Shown piece after piece: positions 21,453 through 44,300 of a stretch of 64,000 nt of DNA; positions within the stretch are counted from its first letter, which is position 1; every line of letters starts with the position of its first letter. The notes under the pieces are model-generated. The model had not been told where the DNA came from. It was given only the letters and a program-made list of their open reading frames with translations, and made no database searches. A program made the translations under genes and the position numbers. This stretch comes from Candidatus Saccharimonadales bacterium. Lineage in GTDB: Bacteria > Patescibacteriota > Saccharimonadia > Saccharimonadales > OMJO01. The stretch is from positions 10,033 through 74,032 of the forward strand of contig JBBQQG010000001.1 of assembly GCA_038216175.1 (NCBI GenBank), in the 5' to 3' direction.

Positions 21453-21560
21453 AGGGTAACACTGCAAGCCTACTCCTGTCAATATGTTGTATATACTACT
21501 ATATTAATTTATGTTTTAGTTTAATAATTGCGTATTATATTTGAATAGATTGGAGATAAT

Positions 21561-22103
21561 ATGGAAGTCGCGCTAGTGAACTCATTTCACGATATTGAAC
21601 CCGAGCATTTATATGATCGCGGTTTTAAGCTACTCGGTGTAGATATTGAAAATGTTATAACTGATTATCGGTCTAGCGAAGTTTTTCCAGGTGTAGCTGA
21701 GAAATTTGAGGAACTTGAAACAAGCGTAAAAGGGCTAAAAACTGTGTTAATAACTAATAGTACCGACATTCATATTATTAATGAAGTTCTCGATCAGATC
21801 GGAGACCATTTCATTTATTCACCGATCGGAGGTTACAATAAAAAGCCGTCAAGTGACATGTTTAGAGCAGCCATATGCTCTGAAGCAGTCTATCCTAATC
21901 AGGCAGCTCTCGTCGATGACCAGTTTAAATCTTATTTCGGCGCTAAAAACGCCGGTTATCGATCTTTTTTCTGGACTTTGCCAGATGGAGAAAATAGTCA
22001 TCCTGCCGTAAAAGCATTTCGACCGGTTGAGACGTCGCTGATCAGACCGTATTATTATCTTAAGAATATAGCTAATCGACGTAGCGATAGTATTTTATCG
22101 TAA
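21561..22103 (+). CDS. HAD-superfamily phosphatase, YqeG/subfamily IIIA-like (degenerate motif I)
   Basis: Motif I reads VDIENVIT (DxE, not DxD). ITNST, YNKKPS and LVDDQ motifs are present. GGAG SD 6 nt upstream. Confidence 0.5.
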   Translation: MEVALVNSFHDIEPEHLYDRGFKLLGVDIENVITDYRSSEVFPGVAEKFEELETSVKGLKTVLITNSTDIHIINEVLDQIGDHFIYSPIGGYNKKPSSDMFRAAICSEAVYPNQAALVDDQFKSYFGAKNAGYRSFFWTLPDGENSHPAVKAFRPVETSLIRPYYYLKNIANRRSDSILS

Positions 22104-22126
22104 TTAATAATTAAGCTGAGTTTGAT

Positions 22127-22402
22127 CTATTTAAAAACTGTTATATAGATACCGGCTTGTGTTGCGTAGCCGATTAGCATCGCTACCAGTAGAACCGCGT
22201 ATTCTATTTTTCTATCAATTTTAAAATGATCGTGCGATGCAATCAGAAGTCCGATTATAAGTCCGATCGGTAAAGGAATAACTCTTGTCAGCTGGGGATT
22301 TACAAACCTTATCCACTGGCCGCCAATTATTAAATAAATTACTAGTTTGAGAAAGTAGACGCTGTCTCGTTCGTTAGTTTCAACTATTTTCTTTTTAGCC
22401 AT
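22127..22402 (-). CDS. small integral membrane protein (hypothetical)
   Basis: 91 aa with three hydrophobic segments. Confidence 0.5.
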   Translation of the reverse strand: MAKKKIVETNERDSVYFLKLVIYLIIGGQWIRFVNPQLTRVIPLPIGLIIGLLIASHDHFKIDRKIEYAVLLVAMLIGYATQAGIYITVFK

Positions 22403-22442
22403 TTCGTTAATTTAAGCATAACCACGACAACCAGGCAACTAG

Positions 22443-22922
22443 TTAGCCTAGCACCCTATGTTTGATTAAAAACGGATGTACTTTTGGAAACTGAGAATGT
22501 AGCGGGCTGGGAAGACTATCGGCATCAAACCAACCTAACTCAGCAATTTTATCAGGTTCATTATTTTTTACCGTTTTAGGATCGACTAACACTGCGTGGG
22601 CAATAGCTATCCAATGGGTTTGAATGCCGTTTAAATTACGGTGGGCGTCGTAAGTAGTTAGATAATCTATTCGTTTTGGAATAACGCCGATTTCTTCAAA
22701 TAGTTCTCGAGTTATGGTTTCGATTAGTGTTTCACCGAACTCAACTGCGCCGCCGACTGCATCCCAGTTACCTTGTTCGTCTCTTGCGTTAGGTCCTCTT
22801 TTTTGAAGCAGTATCCGTCCTTTGCCGTCATGAACTATAGCGACAGCCGACACTCCGATATGGTCAATGCCCCGCCTAAGATCGGTTTTAGGATTAGCTA
22901 TGTTTATTTTTTTGATGGCCAT
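22443..22922 (-). CDS. NUDIX hydrolase
   Basis: Nudix box GGAVEFGETLIETITRELFEEIG. Confidence 0.8.
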   Translation of the reverse strand: MAIKKINIANPKTDLRRGIDHIGVSAVAIVHDGKGRILLQKRGPNARDEQGNWDAVGGAVEFGETLIETITRELFEEIGVIPKRIDYLTTYDAHRNLNGIQTHWIAIAHAVLVDPKTVKNNEPDKIAELGWFDADSLPSPLHSQFPKVHPFLIKHRVLG

Positions 22923-23577
22923 GATCTAATAATTGTACCGCTTTTAGTACTTGTGAAAAATTATTTACAAATATATCGACAGTATTTTCGCCGAAATCTT
23001 TTTTTGACAACAGTCCGCTTTCTAGCGATGCAATGAAATATAGTCCAGCTCCTTTAGCAGCCAGAGCGTCGTTTACGGTATCGCCGACGTATACACATTC
23101 TTCCGGTTTCCAGCCGTGGTTTGATTCGATTAACTGAAAAACTCTGGGATCGGGCTTATGAAACTTAAGATTGTCTTTATAATAAAACGCCTGTATACGG
23201 CTAGCTAGAATATGGTCTGGCTCCAGCATATGTTTTAGCTCATTATGCGAACGCGATGTCAGCACATACATCGATCGATCTTCTTGAATAAATTTATCCA
23301 GTATCTTTAAATTGTTTTCAGGTATCACGTCAAGTTTTTTTAAGTCTACGTAGCGCTCAATTAATTTGTAATATTCACGCCTAAATTCATCTAAATTTAT
23401 ACCCGGTGCCCAGAAATGGACTGCTTGTTCAGCCGGCTTACCCCAATGCTGATTATGTACTTTTCGGCTGACCGGAGGATAGCCAAGTATTTTAAGTACT
23501 TCGTTATCACCCTCAAATGCAACATCTTTTGTCATTACTAATGTATCGTCGAGATCAAGAATTACGGCTTTTATCAT
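22894..23577 (-). CDS. HAD-family hydrolase
   Basis: Motif I VILDLDDTLV, motif II VLTSRS, motif IV YVGDTVNDALAAKGAG. Confidence 0.8.
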   Translation of the reverse strand: MIKAVILDLDDTLVMTKDVAFEGDNEVLKILGYPPVSRKVHNQHWGKPAEQAVHFWAPGINLDEFRREYYKLIERYVDLKKLDVIPENNLKILDKFIQEDRSMYVLTSRSHNELKHMLEPDHILASRIQAFYYKDNLKFHKPDPRVFQLIESNHGWKPEECVYVGDTVNDALAAKGAGLYFIASLESGLLSKKDFGENTVDIFVNNFSQVLKAVQLLDHGHQKNKHS

Positions 23578-23954
23578 TGGTTAAACCGCAGCACCATGCC
23601 AGGATGGCCGACTATTTCAGCCGGCAAGTTATCGTGGATTATCAATGCATCCGGCGATTCAATTTTGGCGAAGTTATTTTCAGCTACAAATATATTTAGT
23701 CCAGTTTCATCGAAGAATTTTATTCTAGAACAAAGCTGGCCAGCTGTTTTAGCTATTTTTAAGTGACGGTTATAATCTTCGACAATGTAGCGGCCAAGGC
23801 TTCTGTCATCTATTTCGTTCCATAATGCCCGCTTAAAACTGATTCGGCTTTCAATTTTTATACCTGCGAAAATATTGCCAACTACTGTATGTCTTAGCAG
23901 GTTGCCAAATGAGCTGTCTTCTTCGACCGGGTTTATTTTATCTACTGAAAACAT
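23574..23954 (-). CDS. hypothetical protein
   Basis: 126-aa ORF with a 4-nt overlap onto the downstream HAD gene. No recognisable motif. Confidence 0.45.
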   Translation of the reverse strand: MFSVDKINPVEEDSSFGNLLRHTVVGNIFAGIKIESRISFKRALWNEIDDRSLGRYIVEDYNRHLKIAKTAGQLCSRIKFFDETGLNIFVAENNFAKIESPDALIIHDNLPAEIVGHPGMVLRFNQ

Positions 23955-24025
23955 TACGACTAATCTATAATCTTTCTTATGTATTTAATTCGTTTTAAAG
24001 TAATTATTATGCCTGCAAATTTTTT

Positions 24026-24202
24026 ATGACGAGCAGCTTTGATTCTCAAAAGTGTAAATCTAAAACTCGCTTTAACAGCGATAGTTCTGCCCAGTCTGCT
24101 CTTAAAAAGTTAAATCCGAAAAAATTATCAGGTAGTCCGATAAGAGTTTATAAATGCCCTGCTTGTAGCGGCTGGCATCTGACAAGGTCAAAACTTAGGT
24201 AA
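24026..24202 (+). CDS. small zinc-ribbon-like protein (hypothetical, 58 aa)
   Basis: Below the ORF-track cutoff. Hand translation gives [58 protein letters not shown], with a C-x39-CPAC..WHLT motif. Confidence 0.4.
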
Positions 24203-24209
24203 TACAGCT

Positions 24210-24656
24210 CTACATTTTAATTTCGGCGTCGCAACCGGCTGGCAAACTGAGGTTCATCAAGCTGTCGATTGTCTTGGGGGTCGGGTCGCTTATATCGATA
24301 AGGCGTTTATGTACCCGCATTTCGAACTGTTCCCGGCTTTTCTTATAGACATGAGGGCTTTTAACGACTGTATATACCGTTTTACGGGTTGGTAGCGGAA
24401 TCGGTCCCGATATTACTGCACCGGTTCGTAGCGCCGTATCGACAATCTGTTTTGCAGCCTGATCGATTACTTTATGATCATATGCTTTAAGCCTGATTCT
24501 AATTCTTTGTTTTACTGGAGCATCAGGTTTTTTTGCTGCTTCTTTTTTAACTGTCACTGGCTTTTTTGCTTCAGCCGGTACGCTTTTCTCTGCTACAGCG
24601 CTAGGTTTGGTTTCTGGTTTTGCCGCTTTTTTAGGTTCGGTTTTGGCTTCAGCCAT
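24210..24656 (-). CDS. rpsJ: 30S ribosomal protein S10 with a roughly 47-aa Lys/Ala/Pro/Glu-rich N-terminal extension
   Basis: Core [26 protein letters not shown]...[38 protein letters not shown] upstream. Confidence 0.9.
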
Positions 24657-30300: not shown

Positions 30301-30414
30301 TGTCTGGTCTCCTATTGTTTAGTTAGAGCTTATTTAATTAATTGTTGTTCGCGGTCCATATTTTGCTGCTTTAATAAGCATAAATCAAAAAGCCCTCACG
30401 CGAGTTACTGATGT

Positions 30415-30442
30415 ATTCTATCGAATTTCAAGCTGGTTGTAA
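30415..30442 (-). promoter_or_regulatory. candidate promoter for tuf
   Basis: Minus strand reads TTACAA, 16 nt spacer, TAGAAT, about 110 nt upstream of the tuf ATG. Confidence 0.25.
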
Positions 30443-30452
30443 AGCCAAAGTC

Positions 30453-31505
30453 TTAACTATTTTTATTATTTTTCGACTGTTTTAATACAGTTTTGTAAGC
30501 CTTAATATAGCCCTCAGTCATCTTTTTATAGTTAAACAGTTTGGCTGTTCGTCTTGCAATATATTTTCGGTTTAGTGAAAAGCATTGGTCTAGTTTGCTA
30601 TATCCTTCGATAAAGTCTTCGACTAGTAATCCGGTTTTGCCGTTTTCAATTACTTCAGGCATCGATCCTCGTCTGATAGCAAAAGTTGGGGTGCCGCACA
30701 TTGCTGCCTCAACAACTGTAAGTCCAAACGGTTCTCGAAAACTAACGGGGTGCAAGTTGCACATAGCGTTACTGAGCAATTTAACTTTGTCTTTAAAGCC
30801 AAGCTCTCCCAGATACTCGACCAGCGGATGGCGTAAATACGGCCTTATAATTTTATCGAAGTATTCCCGACCTTGAACATCGATTTTTCCGGCTATCTTT
30901 ATTTTTATGTTACGGCTGATTGCTAGATCAATCGCAATATGCGGACTTTTTTCGGTATCGAATCTGCCCAAATAGCACAAGTATTTTTGCGGCTTTTCAA
31001 CAAATTTAAAGTCGGCAAGATCTTCGCCGTTATAAACTACGCCTTTGTAATTTAGTCCACTGTAAGACTGCATTTGGTTTTTCGAAATAGCAATGTAGTT
31101 TAGATCTTTTCTTTCTTCATAATGTTTATAATTATCAAGTGTTATCGCCCCGTGAATTGTAGTAAGATTTGGAAAATCTTTAAATTTAGTCAGATCAAAC
31201 GTATGCGAGTGAATTAAATCTATTTCTGGCAACAGTTTAGATATTTCGTGATTTGTGTTTCTGTTAAATAGTTTTATTTTTTTATTAACTAGTTTAAGCT
31301 CGTCGGCTGTTTTCGGAAAACCAGTCGCTTTATCTAGTGTTGGAATAATTCGACAGTCGGCTTTAGAGTCAGCTGGCGCCAGTAATATTGGTTCGTGGCC
31401 AGCAAGTTTCAAACCATTAATCAGATAGCTAATTACCTGTTCTGTGCCACCATACTGAACTGGAGGCACTGGAATATATGGTCCTGAAACTATCGCAATC
31501 CTCAT
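30453..31505 (-). CDS. glycosyltransferase family 4 (GT-B fold)
   Basis: MRIAIVSGPY..PPVQYGGTEQV N-terminus and an E-x7-E region (REPFGLTVVEAAMCGTP...GSMPEVIENGKTGLLV). Confidence 0.85.
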   Translation of the reverse strand: MRIAIVSGPYIPVPPVQYGGTEQVISYLINGLKLAGHEPILLAPADSKADCRIIPTLDKATGFPKTADELKLVNKKIKLFNRNTNHEISKLLPEIDLIHSHTFDLTKFKDFPNLTTIHGAITLDNYKHYEERKDLNYIAISKNQMQSYSGLNYKGVVYNGEDLADFKFVEKPQKYLCYLGRFDTEKSPHIAIDLAISRNIKIKIAGKIDVQGREYFDKIIRPYLRHPLVEYLGELGFKDKVKLLSNAMCNLHPVSFREPFGLTVVEAAMCGTPTFAIRRGSMPEVIENGKTGLLVEDFIEGYSKLDQCFSLNRKYIARRTAKLFNYKKMTEGYIKAYKTVLKQSKNNKNS

Positions 31506-31556
31506 GTATATAACATTGTAGACTACTACGCTGACTTGTGACTAATCTTTAAGATG

Positions 31557-33074
31557 TTAGGAAGCGTTAACTAAACTGTAAGGATAATCAGGATAACGGG
31601 CGCCGAGTTCTTTGCCTCGCCTAAGTTCTTTTACCCTTGGTATATGAGAAAGTACGTCGTGCTCAAGCAGTTTTTGCCATTCTTCCTGATGTATTTTCGG
31701 TTGTCTAACACCCGGCGATCGACTACTGGCTATAGCCATAACTGCTGATACTGTCCAAGCCTGAACGGTTTCCGGCTTATTGGTACTTTCAACTAGCGAC
31801 ACTGGACCGTGCTCAGTTGCGCTTGGCGGCCCAGCAAGTACCCGTCCCCGGAAATCGACATAAACAAATTCCGGGTAGCCTTTGCTTTTTTTAACTACGT
31901 TTAATATTCTGTTCTCTAGTTCCTGCGACAACTTTATAAACCCTTGCCGTCGCATTCCTTTGGCAATATCATAAGTTTCTTTTGGCCAAGTTGTAAATGA
32001 ACCGTGATAATCCCAGAACTTGATTAGTTTGCGCTCGCTAAGTGACCGGCTGCGAATACCTGCGTCGGTTAAAAAGTCGGTGCCCATGATATTCATTACT
32101 ATTCCTTTAATAAATTTCACCTTGGTGTCATGTTCTAAATCGTCAAAAAACATGCTGTCAAGCAGTGATGCCGGATTGGCTGTCATAGTTTTTATTATTC
32201 TGATGCTTCCCGGTACACGGTAATCTATGCCTAGTGCAAAGTATTTTTGTTTCGGCTGCCAAAGCAGCTGTATCGTTCTTGCTTGCAGCTGTTTTGCTCG
32301 ATCAGACAGCTGTTGTCTTCTTTCCGGAAGCATTAAGGCAGCGTATTTAAGGGCATCGTAGGCAAGCCCTTGGACTTCAATTGAACCAATCGGCAAATGA
32401 TGGTTAGCTAGCCGTCCGTTTTTGTGGACATAGAATTCTTTTGAATCCTTCCATACCTGATTTTCTATTCCCTGAGGATTTCGGGCGTGGTACTCCAGTA
32501 GTCCGGAATCAGAATCGCCCAGTTTTTCGAGCAGCCAGTCGACTGCCAGTTCAAGTGCCTGGTACATAGTTGAATGAGAGCCATCACGCCGGCGAACCGG
32601 TACTTCCAGTATCTTCTTTGAATTTCTTTTAGTATAGATACCCAGCATCCTGATAAAATGGGGCGTCGCATCGATCGAACCGTAGTATGCCATTTCTGTG
32701 GCTGTGCCGCCCCAGCGTGAAGATAGCTCAGTAAAAATATGTCTCGACATATCGTCCAGCGGCTTGCCATCGACGATAGTTGTTCGGTATTCGTGAACAA
32801 TTTTGCCATATTCTTCTTCTGTAACGTCACTGCTGTGTAATCCCTGGAGGCTGGCTAGAGTCAGAAGTATGTGCTTGACTAGTTTTGGTTTTAAATTATT
32901 TAAATCCTCTGCTACTTCTAATGAGTCGCGCCCAAATACTGCGCCCTTAAATAGCGTATCGGAGCTGGCATATACGCCTTTACCAGTTTTTGAGATTACC
33001 GATCTAAGTGCCAGCGCTGCTGGAGTCTGGGGCATAATTGGCTGAACTTGTAGGTATTTAAATATCTTCTTCAT
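31557..33074 (-). CDS. amylo-alpha-1,6-glucosidase / glycogen-debranching-enzyme-like (alpha/alpha)6-barrel glycoside hydrolase
   Basis: GAVFGRDSLEVAEDL N-terminal motif and a size/pattern typical of bacterial and archaeal GDE_C-type proteins. Confidence 0.55.
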   Translation of the reverse strand: MKKIFKYLQVQPIMPQTPAALALRSVISKTGKGVYASSDTLFKGAVFGRDSLEVAEDLNNLKPKLVKHILLTLASLQGLHSSDVTEEEYGKIVHEYRTTIVDGKPLDDMSRHIFTELSSRWGGTATEMAYYGSIDATPHFIRMLGIYTKRNSKKILEVPVRRRDGSHSTMYQALELAVDWLLEKLGDSDSGLLEYHARNPQGIENQVWKDSKEFYVHKNGRLANHHLPIGSIEVQGLAYDALKYAALMLPERRQQLSDRAKQLQARTIQLLWQPKQKYFALGIDYRVPGSIRIIKTMTANPASLLDSMFFDDLEHDTKVKFIKGIVMNIMGTDFLTDAGIRSRSLSERKLIKFWDYHGSFTTWPKETYDIAKGMRRQGFIKLSQELENRILNVVKKSKGYPEFVYVDFRGRVLAGPPSATEHGPVSLVESTNKPETVQAWTVSAVMAIASSRSPGVRQPKIHQEEWQKLLEHDVLSHIPRVKELRRGKELGARYPDYPYSLVNAS

Positions 33075-33145
33075 GTTTAAAGAGTTTAACTACTAATCTA
33101 AATTGCGGTCAAGCTTTATTAGTTTATTTACAATTATTAAAGTTT

Positions 33146-33661
33146 TTAATCTGATTTAAATTTAGAACTAAATCTAGAATGTGCATCTAGAATATTTAAT
33201 AATACTCCACCTAGGTGTGCACTTCTTTCTCTAAAACTTGGTCTCGGATTAAAATTTTTAAAATCTGTAAGTACGTTTTTAATTTTGTAGTAATCGTATT
33301 TATTAAATACTTCGCTTCCGCGTTTTACGTATTGCTCGTCTAGGCGATTTAATCTTTTTAATATTAAAGATCGACCGAGCTGAAACTGATTTGGATCAGT
33401 TTTATCTAATTTATCTGTTAGCACGCTTAAAATCATAGCGCTGTCGCGGCTGGTATATTTTGGTGCGAATATAACAGCATCAATTAGACGAGTAGCATCA
33501 GGCTGATGGATAAAGCTTAAACTATATTCATCGGATTCTTCGTAGCCTAGATCTAAGGCAACCTGCCTAGCTTCAAGGCTGGTTTGGTCATTAAAATTAC
33601 CAGTTAGAAATACAGAGTACTTACTGGTATTAAGTTCATTAAACATATGCTCGCTGTTCAC
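33146..33661 (-). CDS. hypothetical protein (171 aa)
   Basis: ORF starting 12 nt after the fusA stop. No recognisable domain. Confidence 0.5.
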   Translation of the reverse strand: MNSEHMFNELNTSKYSVFLTGNFNDQTSLEARQVALDLGYEESDEYSLSFIHQPDATRLIDAVIFAPKYTSRDSAMILSVLTDKLDKTDPNQFQLGRSLILKRLNRLDEQYVKRGSEVFNKYDYYKIKNVLTDFKNFNPRPSFRERSAHLGGVLLNILDAHSRFSSKFKSD

Positions 33662-33672
33662 GATAACATTTC

Positions 33673-35760
33673 CTATTTAGCGTTTTTAGCGATTATTGCT
33701 TCAGCGACATGATTAGGTACGTCAGCGTAGTGGTCAAGCTCCATGCTCGAGCTGGCGCGTCCTTGGGTCGAACTTCGAAGATTAGTTGTGTAGCCGAACA
33801 TTTCACCTAATGGTACGAAAGAAGTAATTTCTTTTATGCCCTGGCTAAGATCTTCCATCGATTCGATTCGTCCCCGTTTGGCATTCAAATCACCGATTAC
33901 TTCACCCATGAACTGTTCCGGTGTAACAACTACTACCTTCATTACTGGCTCTAGCAGTACTGGACTAGCTTTTTTAACACCTTCTTGAAGTGCCATCGAT
34001 CCGGCAATTTTAAATGCCATTTCACTTGAGTCAACATCGTGGTAGCTGCCGAAGTATAATTCAGTTTTAACATCTACAACTGGGTATCCGGCGAGTACGC
34101 CGTTAGACATCGCTTCTTTAATACCTTCTTCGACCGGTTTGATATATTCACTAGGAATTACTCCACCCTTGATAGAGTTAATAAATTCAAATCCTTTACC
34201 GGCTTCGTTTTGCGATAATCTTAGCCATACGTCGCCGTACTGTCCACGTCCACCGCTTTGTCGAATAAACTTGCCCTGAACTTCGACGCCGTCTTTACGG
34301 ATAGTTTCACGGTAGGCAACCTGCGGCTGTCCGACGTTAGCTTCGACTGCAAATTCTCTTTTCATCCTATCGACAATAATTTCAAGATGTAACTCGCCCA
34401 TACCTGAGATAATTGTCTGTCCAGTCTCATCGTCAACCCTAATTCTAAATGTCGGGTCTTCTTCAGCTAGTCGCTGCATCGCTAGACTCATTTTTTCCTG
34501 GTCAGCTTTAGTCTTTGGCTCGATTGCGATCGATACCGGCGGTTCGGGAAACGTAATACTCTCAAGAACTATTGGGTGAGACACGTCGCATAGCGTGTTG
34601 CCAGTAGTTGTGCCTTTAAGCCCGACTATTGCCGCTATATCTCCGGCTTCTACTTCAGCCACGTCTTCCCGTTTATCGGCTTGCATTCGGACTATCCGTC
34701 CGACTCGCTCTTTTTCTCCAGTCGAGCTATTTAATATGTAGCTTCCGGCAGTAATTTTTCCTGAGTAAACTCTAAAATATGCTAGTTTTCCAACAAACGG
34801 ATCAGTTGCAATCTTAAATGCTAGTCCAGCAAATGGCTCGTCAAGCGAAGGTTTTCGTTCAGTTTCGTCGCCTGTTTTCGGTTGAGTGCCCCAGGTACTG
34901 CCTCGGTCAATCGGGCTGGGTAGTAAATCTACTACTAAATCTAGCACTTTTTCGACTATTACTCCGCGTCCGTCGCCGCCGGTTACGACAAAAAAGTCTC
35001 CGGCCAGGATGGCGCTTCGAATAGCATGACGTATTTCGTCTTCCGATAATCCATCTTCGCCGACTTCAAAGTATTTTTCGAGCATCTTTTCATCTTCAGC
35101 TACGGCATTTTCTATTAATAGCGACCGGTATTTTTTGGCCTTATCGAGCATGTCGGCCGGTACTTCGCCTTCGATAAGTTCATGATCTGTAAATTCTTTG
35201 TAGGTGTAGGACTTCATGCTGACGAGATCGATTAGACCGTTGATGCTCTGTTCGAATCCGATGGGCAAATGTATTGGAAATGCTCTTTTATTTAGTCGGG
35301 CGTGAATGCTATCGAGCGATTTATAATAATCACCGCCGGTCTGGTTGATCTTATTTATAAAGCATATCCGTGGAACGCCGTATTTATCAGCTTGTCGCCA
35401 GACTGTTTCAGACTGCGACTCGACTCCCATTTTTCCGTCAAATACTACTACTGCACCGTCAAGTACACGCAGCGAACGTTCAACTTCAACAGTAAAGTCT
35501 ATATGGCCTGGCGTATCGATAATATTTATCTGGTGGTTTTTCCAGTAGCAAGTAACGGCTGCCGACACGATTGTAATACCGCGTTCTCGCTCCTGAGCCA
35601 TCCAGTCTGTTGTCGTTTCGCCTTCATGAACGGCACCGATCTTATGCTTAAGTCCGGTTCGGTAAAGTATGCCTTCAGTAGTTGTAGTCTTACCAGCATC
35701 AATGTGAGCAATGATACCAATATTACGAATTTTTTCTAATGGATATTTTTTAGCTGCCAT
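33673..35760 (-). CDS. fusA: elongation factor G
   Basis: AHIDAGKTTTTE, DTPGHIDF and NKINQ (NKxD variant) motifs, 695 aa. Confidence 0.97.
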   Translation of the reverse strand: MAAKKYPLEKIRNIGIIAHIDAGKTTTTEGILYRTGLKHKIGAVHEGETTTDWMAQERERGITIVSAAVTCYWKNHQINIIDTPGHIDFTVEVERSLRVLDGAVVVFDGKMGVESQSETVWRQADKYGVPRICFINKINQTGGDYYKSLDSIHARLNKRAFPIHLPIGFEQSINGLIDLVSMKSYTYKEFTDHELIEGEVPADMLDKAKKYRSLLIENAVAEDEKMLEKYFEVGEDGLSEDEIRHAIRSAILAGDFFVVTGGDGRGVIVEKVLDLVVDLLPSPIDRGSTWGTQPKTGDETERKPSLDEPFAGLAFKIATDPFVGKLAYFRVYSGKITAGSYILNSSTGEKERVGRIVRMQADKREDVAEVEAGDIAAIVGLKGTTTGNTLCDVSHPIVLESITFPEPPVSIAIEPKTKADQEKMSLAMQRLAEEDPTFRIRVDDETGQTIISGMGELHLEIIVDRMKREFAVEANVGQPQVAYRETIRKDGVEVQGKFIRQSGGRGQYGDVWLRLSQNEAGKGFEFINSIKGGVIPSEYIKPVEEGIKEAMSNGVLAGYPVVDVKTELYFGSYHDVDSSEMAFKIAGSMALQEGVKKASPVLLEPVMKVVVVTPEQFMGEVIGDLNAKRGRIESMEDLSQGIKEITSFVPLGEMFGYTTNLRSSTQGRASSSMELDHYADVPNHVAEAIIAKNAK

Positions 35761-36033
35761 TTAACTTTCTCCCTTAATTTCTTCATTTGTTTGTTGACTG
35801 ACTGTTTCCAGTACCGGACAAATTATAGTTTCACCGGAACTACTGAGCTGTGAAACTGCACCGCCTAGAAAGTAGCATCTTTTTATCATATCGAGATTAT
35901 CCATTTCGAATTGATTGTCTCGTTTATGGTCAGCAAAATATGGGCACTTATTTATACAAGTATCTCTATGATTAGTATTTTCATTAACAGTCCTTGCAAC
36001 AACAAATTCCGAATAGCTGTTTCTTCTAGCCAT
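35761..36033 (-). CDS. hypothetical 90-aa four-Cys protein between rpsG and fusA
   Basis: AAGGAC SD upstream. Its TAA abuts the fusA ATG. Motifs CINKCPYF and CYFLGG. Confidence 0.55.
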   Translation of the reverse strand: MARRNSYSEFVVARTVNENTNHRDTCINKCPYFADHKRDNQFEMDNLDMIKRCYFLGGAVSQLSSSGETIICPVLETVSQQTNEEIKGES

Positions 36034-36037
36034 TTTA

Positions 36038-36313
36038 TTAGTCCTTAAGCAGTTCGGCTATTTTTTGTTGTAAAACTAAAGCCGCGTCGATACCGGTTAC
36101 GTTGTCGACGACCTCGGCAATTTCAGCAGCATCGGTTTGGTTTAATTCTTTAGTTTTTCCATCAGGAAAGTCGATGTCAAGAGTATAGCCCCGTCCGTTT
36201 CTAGCTCGCTTAAGGGCGTTTACGGCTATTTCAGAAAAGCCCGGTGTCATTCCCAGCAGCGATAGCTCCGGATTCGTTTGTCTTTCCGGTGATCGATAGA
36301 ATGCGAATGCCAT
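36038..36313 (-). CDS. hypothetical 91-aa protein directly after rpsG
   Basis: Its start overlaps the rpsG stop as TAATG. No recognisable domain. Confidence 0.55.
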   Translation of the reverse strand: MAFAFYRSPERQTNPELSLLGMTPGFSEIAVNALKRARNGRGYTLDIDFPDGKTKELNQTDAAEIAEVVDNVTGIDAALVLQQKIAELLKD

Positions 36314-36792
36314 TAGAACCTCGCGAAGTGAGCAAATGCTCGGTTAGCTTCGGCCATTTTATGGGTATCTTCACGCTTTTTAACTGCTGATCCGGCATTG
36401 TTATAAGCATCGACAAACTCAAGTGCCAAGCGGTCTTCCATGCTCATGCCTTTTCGGCTTCGGGCAGCTGCAACAATCCACATTAGTGTAAGGTGAGACT
36501 GTCTTTGGCCTTTAACATCGAAAGGAATCTGATAATTAGCCCCGCCGACACGTCGTGAGCGTGTTTCAACATGAGGTTGAACGTTTCTGATAACCTGATC
36601 AAAAACTTCTATCGGGTTTTTAACGCTTAATTTATCGGCTGCCTTTTGCAGTCCGCCGTAAACTAATCTTTCGGCAATTTGCTTTTTACCGTTTAGCATC
36701 ACTCGGTTAATAAGCCTTTGAATCATGATGCTCTCATAAACGCGGTCTGGTTTAATGTCGCGAATTAGCGAGGCTGTTTTTTTACGAGGCAT
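36313..36792 (-). CDS. rpsG: 30S ribosomal protein S7
   Basis: MPRKKTASLIRDIKPD start with an AAGGAG SD. Typical uS7 sequence. The track ORF start at 36864 is judged too long. Confidence 0.95.
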   Translation of the reverse strand: MPRKKTASLIRDIKPDRVYESIMIQRLINRVMLNGKKQIAERLVYGGLQKAADKLSVKNPIEVFDQVIRNVQPHVETRSRRVGGANYQIPFDVKGQRQSHLTLMWIVAAARSRKGMSMEDRLALEFVDAYNNAGSAVKKREDTHKMAEANRAFAHFARF

Positions 36793-37000
36793 TTGATACT
36801 CCTTTAGAACCACCGGTAAATTGCTGTAACTCGACTCCGGCGAAAAAACGGCAAAACTGCTCATTTTTATACGGGTTTATTTCAGTATTTGTTTCGCACA
36901 TTGCAGTAGGTATTTCTTCATATTCACCCATACCGAACTCATTTAATAGTCCGATAAATTTTGGGCAGTCAAATTTAGCGCATGGAATTGCTTCAGTCAT
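36782..37000 (-). CDS. hypothetical 72-aa four-Cys acidic protein between rpsL and rpsG
   Basis: Its start overlaps the rpsL stop as TAATG. Its 3' end overlaps the rpsG start by 11 nt and carries the rpsG SD. Motifs CAKFDCPKF and CRFFAG. Confidence 0.5.
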   Translation of the reverse strand: MTEAIPCAKFDCPKFIGLLNEFGMGEYEEIPTAMCETNTEINPYKNEQFCRFFAGVELQQFTGGSKGVSNAS

Positions 37001-37413
37001 TATTTGCTCGCCTTCTTAGCGCCGTACAAGCTGCGTCCGCGCTTTCGGTTAGCAACACCCTGAAGGTCTAAGCTGCCTCTAACTATGTGATATCGAACAC
37101 CAGGTAAATCTTTAACCCGTCCGCCGCGGATTGTTACTACTGCGTGTTCTTGAAGGTTATGTCCTTCGCCGCCGATATATGCCCAGACTTCGTAGCCGTT
37201 AGTCAATCTGACACGTGCGACTTTTCGAAGTGCCGAGTTAGGTTTCTTGGGTGTTTTAGTCGTAACTTTTACACAGACACCGCGTTTAAATGGTGATGGC
37301 TTTTCATAGTGTTTGGTTTTTAAATTGTTAACGACGCGCTGAAGTGCTGGCGACTTACTTTTAGTCGTCACTTGTTTGCGCGGTTTTCGCACTAACTGAT
37401 TGATTGTTGGCAT
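37000..37413 (-). CDS. rpsL: 30S ribosomal protein S12
   Basis: [14 protein letters not shown]-terminus and [10 protein letters not shown] motif. Confidence 0.97.
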
Positions 37414-37507
37414 TTATTCTCCTACGTAAGTTGTAATCTACTGCAGCGCACGCATGCCTACGTGTGGCTCAGACTACTTAAGTTTGTAAATATAGACTTT
37501 AACAGAT

Positions 37508-40500
37508 TTACTGCAGAGTGGCAAGTGCTTCGGCAGCTTCTATTTCTTCTGGTGATCGATATCCTGTTCCAACTGGAATTCGGCGTCCTAAGATGACATT
37601 TTCTTTAAGACCGAACAAATGGTCGACTTTACCGCTGGTAGCAGCTGCAATTAGGACTCTAGTTGTGTCCTGGAACGAAGCAGCACTTAGGAATGAATCA
37701 GTCGATAGGCTGGCTTTGGTAATACCAAGCAGCAGCTGCGTTACTTTTGCCGGCTGTTTGCCAGCTGAGACAAGTTCTTCGTTAGCTACAACTACAGCCA
37801 GCTTGCTGACAATATCACCAGTGACAAAGGTACTGTCGCCGGCTTCTTCAACTTGAACTCGGCTAAACATCTGACGGACAATAATCTCTAGGTGCTTATC
37901 GGCAATGTTTTGTCCTTGAGAGGCAAAGATTCTTAGAATGTCGTTCATGATGTAGCGCTGAGTTGCTTCGACTCCTTGAAGTCGCATCAGCTCGTGTAAG
38001 TTAATTGAACCGTTAGTTAGTCTCTGACCTGCAACTACTTTGTCGCCGTCTTTTACAACAAGCTGCTTAAAGCTTGGGATCTCGTATTTTTCAACACTCT
38101 TTGATGTCGGAGACAAGGTAATTACTTTCTTAGAGATATCGGCTTTTCCGGCCATAGGAGCGATAAGCGGACTTGATCCGTCTTCTTTAGCAGCAATTAC
38201 GTCGCCGATAGATACATCCGATCCGCTGGCTATTTGAGCTTTGCGGCCATCAAGTTTCAGTTCAATGATTTCAGCGTCGTTAGCTGTAACTTGAACTACA
38301 TAATGCTCGCCTTCTTCCCAGGTTGAAACAAGTCCGGGAATTTCAGCTAGATAGGCTTGTCCCTTTGGTGTTCGTACTTCAAACAGTTCCTCGACACGGG
38401 GAAGTCCAGACGTAATGTCGTCGCCGGCAACTCCTCCTGAGTGGAAAGTCTTAAGCGTCAGCTGGGTACCAGGTTCGCCGATACTCTGAGCAGCAATAAC
38501 ACCGGCCGGGTGGTGTCCGGCTACTAGTTCACCGGTAGCTGGATCAAGACCGTATGATTTGCGACCAACACCCTTAACACTGGTACAGCTAAGTACGCTC
38601 ATGATCTTTACGCCGTCAAGTTCTTCATTTGCGTCGATTTCTTCGGCCATTTGTTTGGAAATTAGCTGACCTTTTTTGACTATGCCTTTTACTTCTTCGG
38701 CAGTGAATCGTCCTACTAAACGAGATGCGTAAGGAACGCCGATTTCGGCTGAGTCGGAACGATAAATTGCAAAACCGGGATCGTCAACTTCTTCGTCAAG
38801 CGTAAATACATCTTGTGAAACATCAACTAGACGGCGAGTTAGGTAGCCTGAGTCAGCGGTTTTAAGTGCGGTGTCAATCATACCTTTTCTAGCACCTCTA
38901 GTAGCCGTAAAGTATTCTAGAGGTGAAAGTCCTGACATATAGTTAGATCTAATCGGCAGTTCAATTGACCGTCCAGTTGCATCGGTGGTAACACCAAGCA
39001 GTCCAACGGCAGTCATAACTTGTCCAATATTTCCTCTGGCTCCAGATACTACAGCAATCGACATTGAACTGTCTTCTTCGGCAAACTGGGCGCTCAATGT
39101 CTGCTGGACAAAGTTAGTCGTATTTGTCCAAGTTTCGACGGTTAAACGGTAGCGCTCTTCATCAGTAATGAATCCTTGGTCGTATTGTTCAGCAATTTCT
39201 GCAGTCTTGTCCTGACCCTCATCGAGTATGCCTTTTAAGCCTTTAATTTCGTTAAAGTCACCCATTCCCATAGATATTCCGGACCTTGTGGCGTAGACGA
39301 ATCCGATGTCCTTTAGATCATCGGCAATTTCTGCAGTCTTGTCCTGGCCATACATTGCGTAGGCTAGTGCCATAGCTGCACCGAGACGTTTTTTAGTCAT
39401 CGCTTCGTCGAGGAAAGGAAAGTCTTCTGGGAATATTTCGTTAAACAGCATTCGGCCAAATGTAGTTGTTCGAACTTCACCTCTAAACGGTGCTCTAACT
39501 GGACTTTGAAGTGTCAGCGAACCGGCGTCGTATGCCATCAGTGCTTCTTCAATTGATGCAAAAGCTTTTACTTTCTTACTGGCACCTGGTCGGTCGTATG
39601 TCAAGTAGTAGCAGCCAAGCACGATATCTTGTTCAATATGTAAAATCGGTGAGCCATCAGCTGGTTTAAGAAGATTACGGTTACTAGCCATAATTTCTCT
39701 AGCTTCGTTCTGAGCAGCGTCAGAAAGTGGCAAGTGAACTGCCATTTGGTCGCCGTCAAAGTCAGCATTAAAACCTTTACAGACAAGCGGGTGAAGTTGG
39801 ATGGCTTTACCTTCAATTAGTACTGGTTGGAAAGCCTGGATACTTAAACGGTGAAGCGAAGGAGCTCGGTTAAGTAGCACGTATTTGCCCTTGATTACTT
39901 CGTCTAGTGCATCCCAGACTTCGGTTTCACCGGTTTCAATCATCCTAGTAGCTGATCGAATATTATGAGCGTGCTCATTAACAATCAGGTGTCCTATGAC
40001 GAATGGTTTGAATAGTTCAAGCGCCATCATCTTAGGCAGGCCGCACTGGCTTATTTTAAGTTCCGGTCCGGCAACAATTACTGATCGGCCGGAGTAGTCG
40101 ACTCGTTTTCCAAGCAAGTTTTGACGGAAACGTCCCTGCTTGCCTTTTAACATGTCAGATAGACTCTTGAGTCGTCGCCTCTGTCCGGTGGCAGCCACTG
40201 CTCGGCCGGAACGGGCACTGTTGTTGTCGATTAGAGCGTCGACAGCTTCTTGGAGCATTCTTTGTTCGTTTCGTCTAATTACTTCCGGGGCATTTAAATC
40301 GATAAGTTTCTTGAGCCGATTGTTACGGTTAATCACTCTTCGGTATAGATCGTTTAAATCGCTGGTTGCGAATCGTCCGCCGGTTAATTGAACCATTGGT
40401 CGAAGATCTGGAGGAATAACAGGTAGAACCGTCATACACATGCTGTTAGGCTTTATGCCGGCCCGCTCCATACTCTCAAGCAGTCTAAGCCGCTTCATTA

Positions 40501-41317
40501 TCTTCTTTTTCCTTTGGCCTTTAGCTTCTTCAGTTTCAATATCTAGTTCAGCGATTAGCTTCGACAAATCAATTTCATCGAGCAGTTCTTTTAGGGCTGC
40601 ACCGCCCATTCCGACAGTGATTAGTGATCTAAGATCGTCAGGCAGCGACCGGTAATCGGTTTCAGATATAAGTCTTAGCTTTTCTAAACTGTCAAACTGA
40701 ACTTTTAATGCGTCAAATTCTTTTGACAACTCTTCTAGTTCTTTAGTCTGCATTTCAGCCAGTGCTTTAACGTTGGCATTCTCGGCTTCAGCTTCTTTGG
40801 CAAATCGCAGTTTAATCGCTTCTGATCCAGCATTAAACTCGGCTTCCTTATCGGCAAGCATTTGGTTTCGTTTGTCGCTGTTAACCGACTTTATGATGTA
40901 GCTGGCAAAGTATGCCACTCGCTCTAGGTTTTTTACTGTCATACCAAGTAGTAGTCCGATAGCTGACGGTGTACCACGCAGGAACCAAATGTGAGCAACA
41001 GGAGCAGCCAGGCTGATATGGCCCATTCGCTCTCGTCTGACAATTGATTTTGTGACAATTTCACCGTTTTTATCAATCGCTGCTTCCCTCGATCTTACGC
41101 CTTTATATTTTGCGTCGTGCGGATTTATATCTTTAACTGGTCCGAAGATCCTTTCGCAGAATAGTCCGTCGCGCTCTGGTTTTTGAGTTCGGTAGTTAAT
41201 CGTTTCTGGTTTTGTCACTTCGCCGTGACTCCAATCGAGAATATCGGTCGGACTGGCTACTGCTAGTCTTACGGCATCAAAATCGGCAATGTTGGTTCCG
41301 TATGAATATCGTCTCAT
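37508..41317 (-). CDS. rpoC: DNA-directed RNA polymerase subunit beta'
   Basis: NADFDGDQMAVH catalytic motif. Start set to the ATG at 41317 (MRRYSYG), with a GAGGAGG SD and 1 nt after the rpoB stop. Confidence 0.97.
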   Translation of the reverse strand: MRRYSYGTNIADFDAVRLAVASPTDILDWSHGEVTKPETINYRTQKPERDGLFCERIFGPVKDINPHDAKYKGVRSREAAIDKNGEIVTKSIVRRERMGHISLAAPVAHIWFLRGTPSAIGLLLGMTVKNLERVAYFASYIIKSVNSDKRNQMLADKEAEFNAGSEAIKLRFAKEAEAENANVKALAEMQTKELEELSKEFDALKVQFDSLEKLRLISETDYRSLPDDLRSLITVGMGGAALKELLDEIDLSKLIAELDIETEEAKGQRKKKIMKRLRLLESMERAGIKPNSMCMTVLPVIPPDLRPMVQLTGGRFATSDLNDLYRRVINRNNRLKKLIDLNAPEVIRRNEQRMLQEAVDALIDNNSARSGRAVAATGQRRRLKSLSDMLKGKQGRFRQNLLGKRVDYSGRSVIVAGPELKISQCGLPKMMALELFKPFVIGHLIVNEHAHNIRSATRMIETGETEVWDALDEVIKGKYVLLNRAPSLHRLSIQAFQPVLIEGKAIQLHPLVCKGFNADFDGDQMAVHLPLSDAAQNEAREIMASNRNLLKPADGSPILHIEQDIVLGCYYLTYDRPGASKKVKAFASIEEALMAYDAGSLTLQSPVRAPFRGEVRTTTFGRMLFNEIFPEDFPFLDEAMTKKRLGAAMALAYAMYGQDKTAEIADDLKDIGFVYATRSGISMGMGDFNEIKGLKGILDEGQDKTAEIAEQYDQGFITDEERYRLTVETWTNTTNFVQQTLSAQFAEEDSSMSIAVVSGARGNIGQVMTAVGLLGVTTDATGRSIELPIRSNYMSGLSPLEYFTATRGARKGMIDTALKTADSGYLTRRLVDVSQDVFTLDEEVDDPGFAIYRSDSAEIGVPYASRLVGRFTAEEVKGIVKKGQLISKQMAEEIDANEELDGVKIMSVLSCTSVKGVGRKSYGLDPATGELVAGHHPAGVIAAQSIGEPGTQLTLKTFHSGGVAGDDITSGLPRVEELFEVRTPKGQAYLAEIPGLVSTWEEGEHYVVQVTANDAEIIELKLDGRKAQIASGSDVSIGDVIAAKEDGSSPLIAPMAGKADISKKVITLSPTSKSVEKYEIPSFKQLVVKDGDKVVAGQRLTNGSINLHELMRLQGVEATQRYIMNDILRIFASQGQNIADKHLEIIVRQMFSRVQVEEAGDSTFVTGDIVSKLAVVVANEELVSAGKQPAKVTQLLLGITKASLSTDSFLSAASFQDTTRVLIAAATSGKVDHLFGLKENVILGRRIPVGTGYRSPEEIEAAEALATLQ

Positions 41318-41318
41318 A

Positions 41319-44300
41319 TTAAACCTCCTCGCTTTCTTCGCTAACATTAATCGAGGCGGTTGTCGCGTCGTATTCTTCATTTTCCATTCCGGCAGTTGGC
41401 TCGGTCGGCAGTGTATCTTGAAGTTCTAATACCATGAACTCATCGACTGCAGCATCAACAGAAACATCGACGTCTGAAGTTGAAGGAGCTGGTACATCGA
41501 CGTCAGCAAGGTGAGTAGCTTCGTCTTTAATATTTTCAGCTAGTACTGCTTCGGCATCGATTACTTCGTCTGATACTATCAGGTCAACTTTAAGTCCAAG
41601 ACCCTGAAGTTCTTTTACAAGAACGTTAAAGCTCTCAGGTACTTTCGGTCCGACAATTTCAGTCTGCTTGATGATCGATTCGTATGCTTTCGATCGTCCA
41701 TAAACGTCGTCTGATTTGATCGTTAGCATTTCCTGCAAAGTATTGCTGGCACCGTAGGCTTCTAGAGCCCAAACTTCCATTTCGCCAAATCTTTGGCCAC
41801 CGTTTTGGGCTTTTCCACCTAGTGGCTGCTGAGTAACCATTGTGTATGGTCCAGTAGAACGAGCGTGGATCTTATCGGCGATCATATGGTTTAGTTTGAT
41901 CATATACATCGATCCGACAGTCGTTCGCTCAAAGAAGGCATCGCCGGTTCGTCCATCGAAAAGTTGCTGCTTACCGTCTTCTGGTAGTCCTGCTTGTTTT
42001 AGCAGATCATGAATCTGAACGATTGATACTCCATTAAAAGCTGGGCTAGCTACCTTCATACCAAGTGCTCTGGCTGCCATACCTAAGTGAGTTTCAAATA
42101 ACTGGCCAATGTTCATTCTACTAGGTACACCTAGCGGGTTTAGTACAATATCAACAGATGTTCCATCGGCTGTAAATGGCATATCTTCAACTGGTAGAAT
42201 ACGGGCAATAACACCTTTGTTACCATGCCTTCCGCCTAGTTTGTCGCCGACAGCTATTTTTCGCATCTGGGCAACGAACACCTGAATCTGCATAATTACG
42301 CCGGCTTTTAGCTCATGTCCGTTAGCCCGGCTAAATACTTTTACGCCGACTACTTTTCCGTGCTTGCCGTTACTCATTCTTTGCGACGTATCACGGACTT
42401 CTTTAGCTTTTTCACCGAATATTGCTCTTAGCAGTCGTTCTTCTGAGCTTAGTTCCTGTTCGCCTTTTGGAGTAATCTTTCCGACTAATATGTCGCCGGG
42501 GTGTACTTCGGCACCAATTCTAACTATTCCGTCTTCATCAAGGTGTCTTAGTGCGTCTTCTGAAACATTAGGAATATCTCTCGTAACTATTTCTGGTCCC
42601 AGTTTAGTTTCTCGAACTTCAACCATGAAATCTACAATATGAACTGATGTCAGGGTGTCATCTTCGACTAGTTTTCTGGAGATAATGATGGCATCTTCGA
42701 AGTTATATCCGCTCCAAGGCATAAATGCGACTAGCAAATCTTTTCCAAGCGCTAATTCGCCACCTTCAATCGACATTCCTTCGATTAATGAATCGCCTTC
42801 TTTTACCGTTTGGCCGCTCGATACTACGACACGCTGGTTAATACTAGTACCTTCGTTTGATCTTATGTAATGCTGAGGTCTGTAAGTTACACTACCTTCT
42901 TTATACTTAACGATTACTTCGTCAGCATTTGCTAGTGACACCTCGCCGTCGGCTTCAGCAACAATTAACTGTCCGGTGTTTCTAGCGGCTGTAGTTTCCA
43001 TGCCAGTTCCGACAATTGGTGCACTAGGCTTAACTAGCGGTACTGCTTGACGCTGTTGGTTGCTGCCCATAAGTGAGCGGTAAACGTAGTTTTTTTCAAT
43101 AAATGGAATTAAACCGGCACTTGAGCCGATAATCTGCATTCTCGATGCGTCCATATGGGTGACGTCGTCGGCATCAACTTCACCGGCTTGAAGCTTTGTT
43201 CTTGCTGAAACACGGTTTAGTAGAAAGTGTCCTTTTTCGTCGTAGTCTTCCGATGCGTTTACGATAACTGCCGATTCTTCCTGTGATGCGTCCAGATAAA
43301 CAACGTCGCGGGTAACTCTGGCTTTTACGGGCCAGGTTGCCCGGTTTTTTACAGCTGCCAGTTTTTTAGCTTGATCGGCAGTAATAACTTGACCGGCTTT
43401 TACGATAGTCGTCCCTTTTTCGTCTTCTAGATTAACCGAAGCAATCTCACCAGCTGCATCTTTTGCAGGCACGGCACTGACTACTATCCGGTAAGGAGTT
43501 TCGATAAATCCATAGTCGTTAATTCGGGCATGGCAAGCTAGATTAAGTACTAATCCGATGTTGGCACCTTCAGGAGTTTCTACAGCACAAATTCGTCCGT
43601 AGTGGGTAGCGTGGGCATCACGAACTTCAAATCCAGCACGTTCTCTCGATAATCCGCCTGGGCCCATAGAACTGAGTCGTCTTTTATGAGCTAGTTCACT
43701 CAGCGGATTAATCTGGTCCATAAACTGTGATAGCTGACTGCTAGCAAAAAATTCCCTTACGGCTGCCACAATTGGACGGGCGTTTATAAGCTGAGCTGGT
43801 GTAACTGTTTCAATTTCGCACATGCTCATACGGTCTTTTGTGTTTCGCTCCATTCGAAGCAGACCAATTCTAAACTGACGCTGAACTAGTTCGCCGACTA
43901 ATTTAACCCGTCTGTTAGCTAGGCTGTCGATATCGTCAGCTGGTTCCTGAGTATTATTTAGTCTAATGATCTCGGCAATTATTGCCGTTAGATCTTCCAG
44001 ACGCATAATTCTATTTTCAATTGTGTTTGAAATATCTAGATCGAGCCGTTTGTTGATCTTATATCTTCCGACGCGGCTAAAATCAAAACGTTTGAAATTA
44101 TAAAACATGTTCTCTAGCAGGCTGCGAGCGTTATCAACAGTCGCAAGGTCGCCTGGTCGCAGACGTCGGTAAACTTCGATCAAGGCATCATTGGCACCTT
44201 TAGTCGGATCTTTTTCGATTGTCTGCTCGATATAGCTGGTTTTACCGGAGTCGACGTGTTTGAAAGTATCTTTCATATGAGCGTCTGTTAAACCGAGTGC

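Follow-up and report, generated by a model that had tools for sequence, protein, structure and literature searches.

Candidate small acidic orphan genes at the str operon junctions of a Saccharimonadales bacterium

The gene order rpsL-rpsG-fusA of the str operon is among the most conserved in bacteria. Here, we describe three small open reading frames (ORFs) of 72, 91, and 90 amino acids (aa), called ORF72, ORF91, and ORF90, which occupy the two junctions flanking rpsG in a Candidatus Saccharimonadales bacterium (assembly GCA_038216175.1, contig JBBQQG010000001.1, positions 10,033 to 74,032 of the forward strand). The whole stretch of 64,000 nucleotides (nt) is referred to as the window, and coordinates are those of the window unless another locus is named. 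Direct reading gives the minus-strand order rpsL, ORF72, rpsG, ORF91, ORF90, and fusA, with the following features (pI, isoelectric point; CP marks a cysteine [Cys] followed by proline).

37508-41380, minus strand: rpoC (direct reading)
37000-37413, minus strand: rpsL, ribosomal protein S12, 137 aa, pI 11.3 (85 to 88% identical to Saccharibacteria S12)
36782-37000, minus strand: ORF72, 72-aa orphan, pI 4.43, Cys at 7, 12 (CP), 35, and 50
36313-36792, minus strand: rpsG, ribosomal protein S7, 159 aa, pI 10.5 (Pfam PF00177, E = 3e-54)
36038-36313, minus strand: ORF91, 91-aa orphan, pI 4.73, no Cys
35761-36033, minus strand: ORF90, 90-aa orphan, pI 5.27, Cys at 26, 30 (CP), 53, and 72 (CP)
33673-35760, minus strand: fusA, elongation factor G (EF-G), 695 aa, coupled downstream of ORF90 (85 to 88% identical to EF-G of relatives)

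The coupled geometry that an earlier note had described for the three ORFs was right at every junction. The ATG of ORF72 shares bases with the TAA of rpsL (TAATG); the ORF spans the 207-nt gap between rpsL and rpsG and ends 11 nt inside rpsG, whose Shine-Dalgarno (SD) sequence AAAGGAG (36799-36805) lies within ORF72, 6 nt upstream of the rpsG ATG at 36792. The TAA of rpsG likewise shares bases with the ATG of ORF91 (TAATG), preceded by an SD GAGG in the final rpsG codons. A spacer of only 4 nt separates ORF91 from ORF90, which has the SD AAGGA, and the fusA ATG at 35760 directly follows the TAA of ORF90, with the fusA SD GGGAG inside ORF90. Counting GAAGG, each of the starts has one such SD-like purine run in the final codons of the preceding cistron. 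On the operon strand, a simple scan of 33000-38000 detected nothing that resembles a terminator. A structured RNA leader or autoregulatory element was rejected as the content of the gaps, as Rfam gave no family at an E value of ≤1 in 35500-37700 and the inserts are open and coding-like. Furthermore, a 1,212-nt Logan contig from SRR19962015 is identical to positions 35722-36933 of the window, and gene callers report on it the full S7, ORF91, and ORF90 and, at the edge of the contig where ORF72 ends, a fragment of 49 residues. Since this independent contig is identical, the gene arrangement is not an assembly artifact.

Codon usage was scored with a log-odds model trained on 31 long window ORFs. 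Per codon, ORF72 scored 0.29, ORF91 0.35, and ORF90 0.23, compared with 0.32 ± 0.12 for 90-codon segments of true genes and −0.10 ± 0.12 (maximum, 0.25) for spurious internal ORFs of 60 to 130 aa, and the called frame scored best of the six in all three cases. The gaps themselves are filled to an extent that shuffled sequences seldom reach, with a forward frame that stays open through 99% of the 207-nt gap (P = 0.018) and two ORFs tiling the 552-nt gap between rpsG and fusA (P = 0.03). The log-likelihood ratio of the amino acid composition, per residue, was 0.26 for ORF91, 0.10 for ORF72, and 0.03 for ORF90 (real proteins, 0.17 ± 0.09; off-frame translations, −0.16 ± 0.11). The values of ORF72 and ORF90 are lower because the penalty for four Cys equals the shortfall, and the composition of both is protein-like once the extra Cys are set aside. 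Codon usage and frame, the filling of the gaps, acidity relative to shuffled DNA, and purifying selection on relatives' ORFs of the same class (the last two presented below) all point to coding genes. The geometry, the SD sequences, and the codon scores support the earlier view of three real mini-genes, and ORF72, ORF91, and ORF90 are very probably genes that are cotranscribed and translationally coupled within the str operon.

Orphan status and cysteine content

No credible match for any of the three proteins was obtained in Pfam, NCBIfam, PHROGs, PADLOC, or PDB sequences; in Pfam and NCBIfam, the only matches at an E value of ≤1 were two to acyl carrier proteins, both for ORF91 and far below the cutoff. 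A collection of 5.8 billion proteins, searched by word index, returned self matches only, and tblastn and phmmer searches of the window ORFs in 160 related loci gave zero matches. No donor, paralogue, or duplication source of the inserts was found in the window or in these loci by blastn (word size, 7) and tblastn. An exhaustive phmmer search of 1.84 billion representatives, for which only ORF90 served as the query, produced one nonself match (P0004, E = 1.8e-5). We rejected it as a homologue, as it is a 344-aa protein of tandem 52-aa repeats whose E value sums five weak matches; a single repeat unit reaches 23 bits, and only C26 among the Cys of ORF90 pairs with a Cys. A 110-aa ORF of the related locus L007, considered as a positional homologue of ORF90 for its CPYF and I/F-CPV elements (pairwise E = 0.011 and 0.041), was not upheld either: its Smith-Waterman shuffle P value of 0.03 was lost after multiple testing, and a phmmer check over 1,846 local ORFs gave nothing at an E value of ≤10. 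Thus, within the libraries searched, ORF72, ORF91, and ORF90 have no homologue outside their lineage.

Structure prediction with AlphaFold2 gave for ORF91, from a single sequence, a helix-strand-strand-helix-helix model with a mean predicted local distance difference test score (pLDDT) of 64 and a predicted template modeling score of 0.50, for which Foldseek found nothing below an E value of 0.09 in PDB and BFVD. The ORF90 model, made with no alignment, was uninformative (pLDDT, 40). An identity as ribosomal proteins was rejected on three grounds. No family model recognizes the three ORFs in the same Pfam search that identifies S7 at 3e-54; their presence is not conserved, with no match in the 160 related loci and two relatives (L004 and L006) free of inserts; and their pI values (4.43, 4.73, and 5.27) are opposed to those of S12 (11.3) and S7 (10.5).

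The earlier note had also proposed that ORF72 and ORF90 belong to one family of small metal-binding proteins on account of shared Cys motifs. When properly aligned, the two proteins are not significantly similar, with a Smith-Waterman score of 23 against 23.8 ± 4.5 for shuffles (P = 0.55) and a BLASTP E value of 1.7. In ORF90, the Cys located 23 residues past the CP Cys is C53, which is also the Cys of CYFLGG; in ORF72, the Cys at that distance is C35 and the Cys of CRFFAG is C50, i.e., two separate residues. Because the similarity is nonsignificant and the motifs cannot share one alignment, the family claim fails as stated, and alignment or profile support for a common Cys signature of the two was sought but not obtained. 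What stands is that both proteins have four Cys and a C-x3/4-C-P element. Exactly four Cys apiece is more than expected from the 0.52% Cys of the window proteome (P = 5.6e-4 for ORF72 and 1.3e-3 for ORF90), and the successive Cys spacings are 5, 23, and 15 residues in ORF72 and 4, 23, and 19 in ORF90. Each protein has a single close pair (C-x4-C in ORF72; C-x3-C in ORF90, whose model is the one with a pLDDT of 40) and two distant Cys. A 4Fe-4S ferredoxin was rejected, given that only the terminal C-x3-C-P of the CxxCxxCxxxCP pattern is present in ORF90 and that Pfam Fer4 gave no match. Young, random-like sequence as the source of the four Cys was partly rejected, since it fits neither the composition apart from Cys nor the acidity and the Cys-Pro excess described below.

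Str operon junctions in related genomes

By its S7 protein, the bacterium belongs to Saccharibacteria (Saccharimonadales; TM7). The nearest S7 sequences retrieved are only 79 to 83% identical to it, and we refer to loci with an S7 at least 67% identical as the family. The junctions compare as follows.

rpoC-rpsL: 22 to 299 nt in the family; 94 nt in the window
rpsL-rpsG: −1 to 267 nt in the family; 207 nt in the window
rpsG-fusA: −1 to 860 nt in the family; 552 nt in the window
fusA-tuf: 109 to 612 nt in the family; 3,372 nt in the window, with three genes inside

In more distant TM7 loci, the rpsL-rpsG distance is mostly −1 to +5 nt (110 nt in one locus), and the ancestral state of the TM7 junctions is −1 to +3 nt. 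The medians for about 115 non-TM7 loci are 54 nt for rpsL-rpsG and 30 nt for rpsG-fusA, against which the 207 and 552 nt of the window are unusually long, as previously claimed. All 14 of the gaps of at least 190 nt at rpsL-rpsG or rpsG-fusA are filled with same-strand ORFs (each P ≤ 0.03). In the 12 gaps that were tabulated, the ORF starts −4 to +12 nt from the upstream stop and ends 0 to 28 nt before the next gene or up to 11 nt inside it. Each junction holds 0 to 2 ORFs; two-gene rpsG-fusA cassettes occur in the window, L001, and L008, and both rpsG junctions measure −1 to 12 nt in the insert-free L004 and L006. The str operon junctions of this family, from rpoC through rpsL, rpsG, and fusA to tuf, are hot spots for small genes.

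The proteins encoded at these junctions are mutually unrecognizable. An all-against-all comparison of 19 junction ORFs left no significant pair after correction, and Pfam gave nothing meaningful for them, the sole match being a phage tail fiber repeat (E = 0.017). Nine of the 10 relatives' junction ORFs that were looked up are represented in public data sets by gene-called proteins that cluster in groups of 1 to 4, and one bears the name "hypothetical protein." The search of related genomes for the window ORFs showed that their sequences are not conserved there as ORFs. A hard-wired partnership of the small proteins with S12, S7, and EF-G is not borne out by this comparison, as relatives have no recognizable copy, some being free of inserts and others carrying different ORFs.

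In spite of this lack of homology, the junction proteins share certain properties. All 19 are acidic (pI 4.1 to 5.5), while translations of shuffled DNA have a mean pI of about 9.5 and fall below pI 6 in only 3.4% of cases. Since the shuffled translations are basic, the acidity is attributable to selection and not to composition. The number of Cys is bimodal, with 0 or 1 in ten proteins and 4 or 5 in nine. Among these nine, the Cys class, Pro comes directly after 10 of the 39 Cys, compared with 1.8 expected (P = 1e-5), and the excess persists (P = 0.002) when the background is set to 9.2%, the highest off-frame rate; in the window proteome, Pro follows Cys at only 2 of 67 positions. Five of the nine Cys-class proteins, ORF72 and ORF90 among them, have an N-terminal C-x2-4-C-P element, which is compatible with a thiol function such as metal binding and is no sign of shared ancestry. 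Consequently, the metal-binding idea survives in a looser form than that of a common ORF72/ORF90 family: about half of the junction proteins have four or five Cys and are rich in Cys-Pro, and thiol-based binding of a metal (Zn or an Fe-S cluster, for example) is plausible for this class.

Purifying selection, a check suggested by the earlier note, was measured on relatives' junction ORFs in one close pair, L001 and the Logan contig L162, using the ratio of nonsynonymous to synonymous substitution rates (dN/dS) by the method of Nei and Gojobori (NG86). Both loci have the same layout of S7, ORF95, ORF116, EF-G, ORF128, and Tuf, and the results were as follows.

S7: dN/dS 0.015, dS 0.36
EF-G: dN/dS 0.005, dS 0.47
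ORFa (90/95 aa): dN/dS 0.51, Fisher P = 0.13
ORFb (116 aa): dN/dS 0.16, Fisher P = 6e-10
ORF128 (fusA-tuf junction): dN/dS 0.50, Fisher P = 0.08

Pooled over the three junction ORFs, the Fisher test gave P = 4e-9 for ratios of 0.16 to 0.51, and dN was 0.075 to 0.10 in the junction ORFs and 0.002 to 0.005 in the flanking genes. The pooled result indicates that the junction ORFs are kept intact at short range, with selection on them purifying yet relaxed. At larger distances, synonymous sites are saturated, both between L001 and L005 and between the window and every relative, and the junction DNA of L001 and L005 cannot be aligned and differs in insert size and content despite 96% identity of their S7 proteins. 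With synonymous saturation and such fast divergence, the loss of detectable homology is expected. Gains and losses of junction genes are also required, because the number and size of the ORFs differ and because L004, L006, L086, and L087 lack such ORFs.

Noncoding spacers and other genes are found at the same junctions. The rpsL-rpsG spacer of L001 is a noncoding sequence of 106 nt, of which the 78 nt before rpsG (3923-4000) are 93.6% identical to positions 1-78 of L162. This stretch, with an AAGCGAA/TTCGCTT hairpin inside, is more conserved than the synonymous sites of S7 and EF-G (proportion of synonymous differences, 0.29 to 0.35), and it might serve as regulatory RNA, for instance as an S7 operator. 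The spacers of L007 and L087 (124 and 123 nt) are 72% identical over 90 nt. Downstream of rpsG, loci of the Nanosynbacter-like clade share a conserved 164-aa gene, which is intact in L013, L015, and L098 and apparently split in L019; its product begins MASFSFDIVSEIDKAEMNNV and is putatively YajQ-like. In L019, fusA lies kilobases off, and the sequence that was retrieved of L013 and of L098 shows no fusA. Because this clade also has a gene after rpsG, insertion at that position is widespread in TM7. A distant TM7 contig, L100, has two adjacent ORFs of 59 and 54 aa past rpsG (2274-2633), each with a CxxC and a third Cys, which look like paralogues of each other and of a different type from the window ORFs. 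As for the 3.4 kb between fusA and tuf in the window (30301-33672, minus strand), the three genes encode proteins of 171 and 505 aa without a Pfam family and a family 4 glycosyltransferase (PF00534, E = 7e-20). The retrieved loci were found to have none of these genes, and their fusA-tuf gap is 109 to 612 nt whenever tuf was reached.

Competing explanations and known systems

We consider it probable, with some reserve, that ORF72, ORF91, and ORF90 are genuine lineage-restricted genes for small acidic proteins, fast-evolving passengers of the str operon and not conserved components of the ribosome. They would be transcribed on the rpsL-rpsG-fusA mRNA, each being translated from its own SD in the final codons of the preceding cistron, and ribosomes would pass across the inserts to rpsG and fusA by way of stop/start overlaps or of spacers no longer than 4 nt. 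In relatives, junction genes are gained, lost, and diverge fast, with protein change 15 to 50 times that of the flanking genes, so that homology between genera is erased under a relaxed purifying selection that presumably acts on the window's own ORFs too. As accessory passengers, they may exploit the very high constitutive expression of the operon and be filtered by it, only small, soluble, acidic products seeming to be tolerated at such a level. The Cys4 proteins may bind metal, either Zn or an Fe-S cluster.

It is important to consider that several observations weigh against this explanation. ORF90 is the weakest of the three, with a codon score (0.23) in the upper tail of the spurious ORFs (maximum, 0.25), an intermediate composition score (0.03), and an AlphaFold2 pLDDT of 40. 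Random sequence of 40% GC gives 3.8% Cys, which matches four Cys per 72 to 90 residues; therefore, the number of Cys alone is no proof of a metal site. Two of the three L001/L162 junction ORFs have a dN/dS near 0.5 and are individually nonsignificant (P = 0.13 and 0.08). Purifying selection is measured in the relatives' junction ORFs, the window ORFs having no orthologue for comparison, and translation of ORF72, ORF91, and ORF90 is something that we infer from sequence.

Part of this evidence is shared with the best-surviving alternative, which we nevertheless find unlikely, namely, that the inserts are functionless DNA kept open only as a translated spacer, relaying ribosomes and avoiding polarity on rpsG and fusA. 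The orphan status of the three ORFs would be expected under it, as would inserts that differ in size and content even at 96% S7 identity, a Cys content equal to the random expectation, the low-confidence ORF90 prediction, and the dN/dS of about 0.5 of two relatives' junction ORFs. However, an open spacer is unnecessary where each downstream gene has its own SD, and codon usage and the composition apart from Cys resemble those of real proteins. Moreover, acidity holds for 19 of 19 junction proteins, where random translation of their DNA gives basic products, the dN/dS of ORFb is 0.16 (P = 6e-10), and composition fails to explain the Cys-Pro excess. A pure spacer is thus disfavored by the separate SDs, by composition and acidity, and by the constraint on ORFb.

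The interpretation closest to the earlier note holds that ORF72 and ORF90 are a paralogous metal-binding family and that, together with ORF91, they are made in fixed proportion as coupled partners for S12, S7, or EF-G, a role as acidic escorts being one example. Their position and tight coupling would suit such a role, and so would the opposite charges (about −5.5 for ORF72, −4.5 for ORF91, and −3.3 for ORF90, against about +26 for S12 and +14 for S7), the acidity of junction proteins throughout the family, and the enrichment in Cys and Cys-Pro. Yet ORF72 and ORF90 are not significantly similar, no homologues of the window ORFs were found in the libraries searched, and L004 and L006 do without inserts while other relatives have unrelated ORFs, 0 to 2 per junction. 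In addition, a dN/dS of 0.16 to 0.5 is far looser than an obligate ribosomal partner would show. The nonconservation, the insert-free relatives, and the loose constraint disfavor conserved partners, and we regard this interpretation as distinctly improbable.

Zinc ribbon ribosomal proteins, i.e., the Cys forms of uS14, bL31, bL33, and bL36, are basic and universally conserved, with paired CxxC knuckles and Pfam matches. ORF72 and ORF90 resemble them in being small, in having four Cys, and in being encoded in a ribosomal operon; unlike them, they are acidic and unique, have one C-x3/4-C pair and two isolated Cys, and match no model. Eukaryotes have dedicated chaperones for ribosomal proteins, among them Yar1, Tsr2, and Acl4. 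By analogy only, the acidic charge of the window proteins matches the very basic ribosomal proteins in a similar manner, and coupled synthesis could favor early capture; the difference is that the window ORFs have neither homology nor conservation. A bolder version, to which we attach very little probability, is that the junction proteins of Saccharimonadales are a functional class (small, acidic, often with Cys4 and Cys-Pro) acting on S12, S7, or EF-G. Such a class might comprise charge-complementary escorts, assembly factors, or protectors of the translation apparatus that evolve too fast for homology to be traceable, and, if real, it would be a bacterial analogue of the eukaryotic dedicated chaperones. 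A related and less exotic reading is that the coupled junctions of highly expressed operons are cradles for new genes.

Least probable of all is selfish or conflict cargo (an ORF91-ORF90 toxin-antitoxin pair, immunity or antidefense proteins, or remnants of free-standing homing endonucleases targeting conserved-gene junctions), which would fit the two-gene rpsG-fusA cassettes of the window, L001, and L008, the resemblance of small, acidic, quickly diverging orphans to antidefense or immunity proteins, and a GIY-YIG nuclease gene (PF01541, E = 3e-18) at the fusA-tuf junction of L003, but is contradicted by the lack of PADLOC, Pfam, and PHROG matches for the window ORFs and of meaningful Pfam matches for the 19 junction ORFs, by the acidity of both ORF91 and ORF90 where a pair of basic toxin and acidic antitoxin is expected, by the failure to find repeats, paralogues, or donor sequences in the window or the loci, and by native codon usage with no adjacent mobile element genes. 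The L003 gene itself is a 99-aa ORF (7078-7377 of that locus) that may be a free-standing homing-type nuclease, hinting at a route of DNA entry into junctions. In phage T4, the seg and mob genes are free-standing homing endonuclease genes between conserved genes. They are comparable as variable small genes in the gaps of conserved genes, the L003 gene between fusA and tuf included, and differ in that the window ORFs have no nuclease domain and the 19 junction ORFs no Pfam domain.

Returning to the passenger genes that we favor, orphan genes for small proteins are common in the genomes of Patescibacteria, or the candidate phyla radiation (CPR). The window ORFs are like them in being short, fast evolving, without detectable homologues, and annotated at most as "hypothetical protein," and differ in that they, and those of the family, fit coupled str operon junctions base-perfectly, repeatedly across the family, and are all acidic. 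Accessory genes in ribosomal protein operons are also known from other bacteria. In Firmicutes, the L7Ae-like gene ybxF lies between rpoC and rpsL. In Pseudomonadales, an unknown gene cluster is located after rpsF-rpsR and before rplI (PMC9132574). Both cases share with the window the cotranscription of unknown or accessory ORFs with ribosomal protein genes, but they are conserved across an order or a phylum, whereas genes of the window type are unrecognizable between genera and missing from some relatives. In the literature searched, we found none of the following described: a hot spot at every str junction throughout a family, base-perfect coupling, and uniform acidity of the products.

The junctions of this family offer a natural system for studying how new genes arise and persist in essential, highly expressed operons. 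They let one ask what a high expression level selects in new proteins, such as solubility and negative charge, and whether episymbiotic, genome-reduced bacteria add lineage-specific translation factors. They also carry two warnings: ORFs at the ribosomal operon junctions of CPR bacteria are not to be presumed ribosomal proteins, and motif likeness among Cys mini-proteins needs statistical testing.

Other loci of the window

The S10 operon of the window presents the same phenomenon, in the following feature.

18552-18854, minus strand: ORF100, small acidic orphan of 100 aa, pI 5.11, codon log-odds 0.32, without a Pfam match

ORF100 begins 2 nt past rplB and overlaps the start region of rpsS, and the other junctions of this operon from rplC to rplO are all −1 to +18 nt. 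The earlier count of at least four unknown small proteins in ribosomal operons therefore stands with this fourth ORF between rplB and rpsS, and the part that made them hard-wired partners does not. The S10 protein encoded by rpsJ (24210-24656) is extended at its N terminus by a Lys-, Ala-, and Pro-rich stretch of about 50 aa. Because about 2.8 kb separates rpsJ from rplC (21358-24656), the S10 operon is split in this genome, and the interval holds an opposite-strand HAD-type hydrolase (PF00702) and several small ORFs, some of which gave no match in Pfam. Beside rpsJ, on the opposite strand, a 58-aa ORF (24026-24202, plus strand) has Cys at 10, 44, and 47 (CPAC) and no Pfam match. Finally, a 472-aa protein with a hydrophobic N terminus (52716-54134, minus strand) has 15 Cys in a proteome with 0.52% Cys and is probably a secreted or surface protein.

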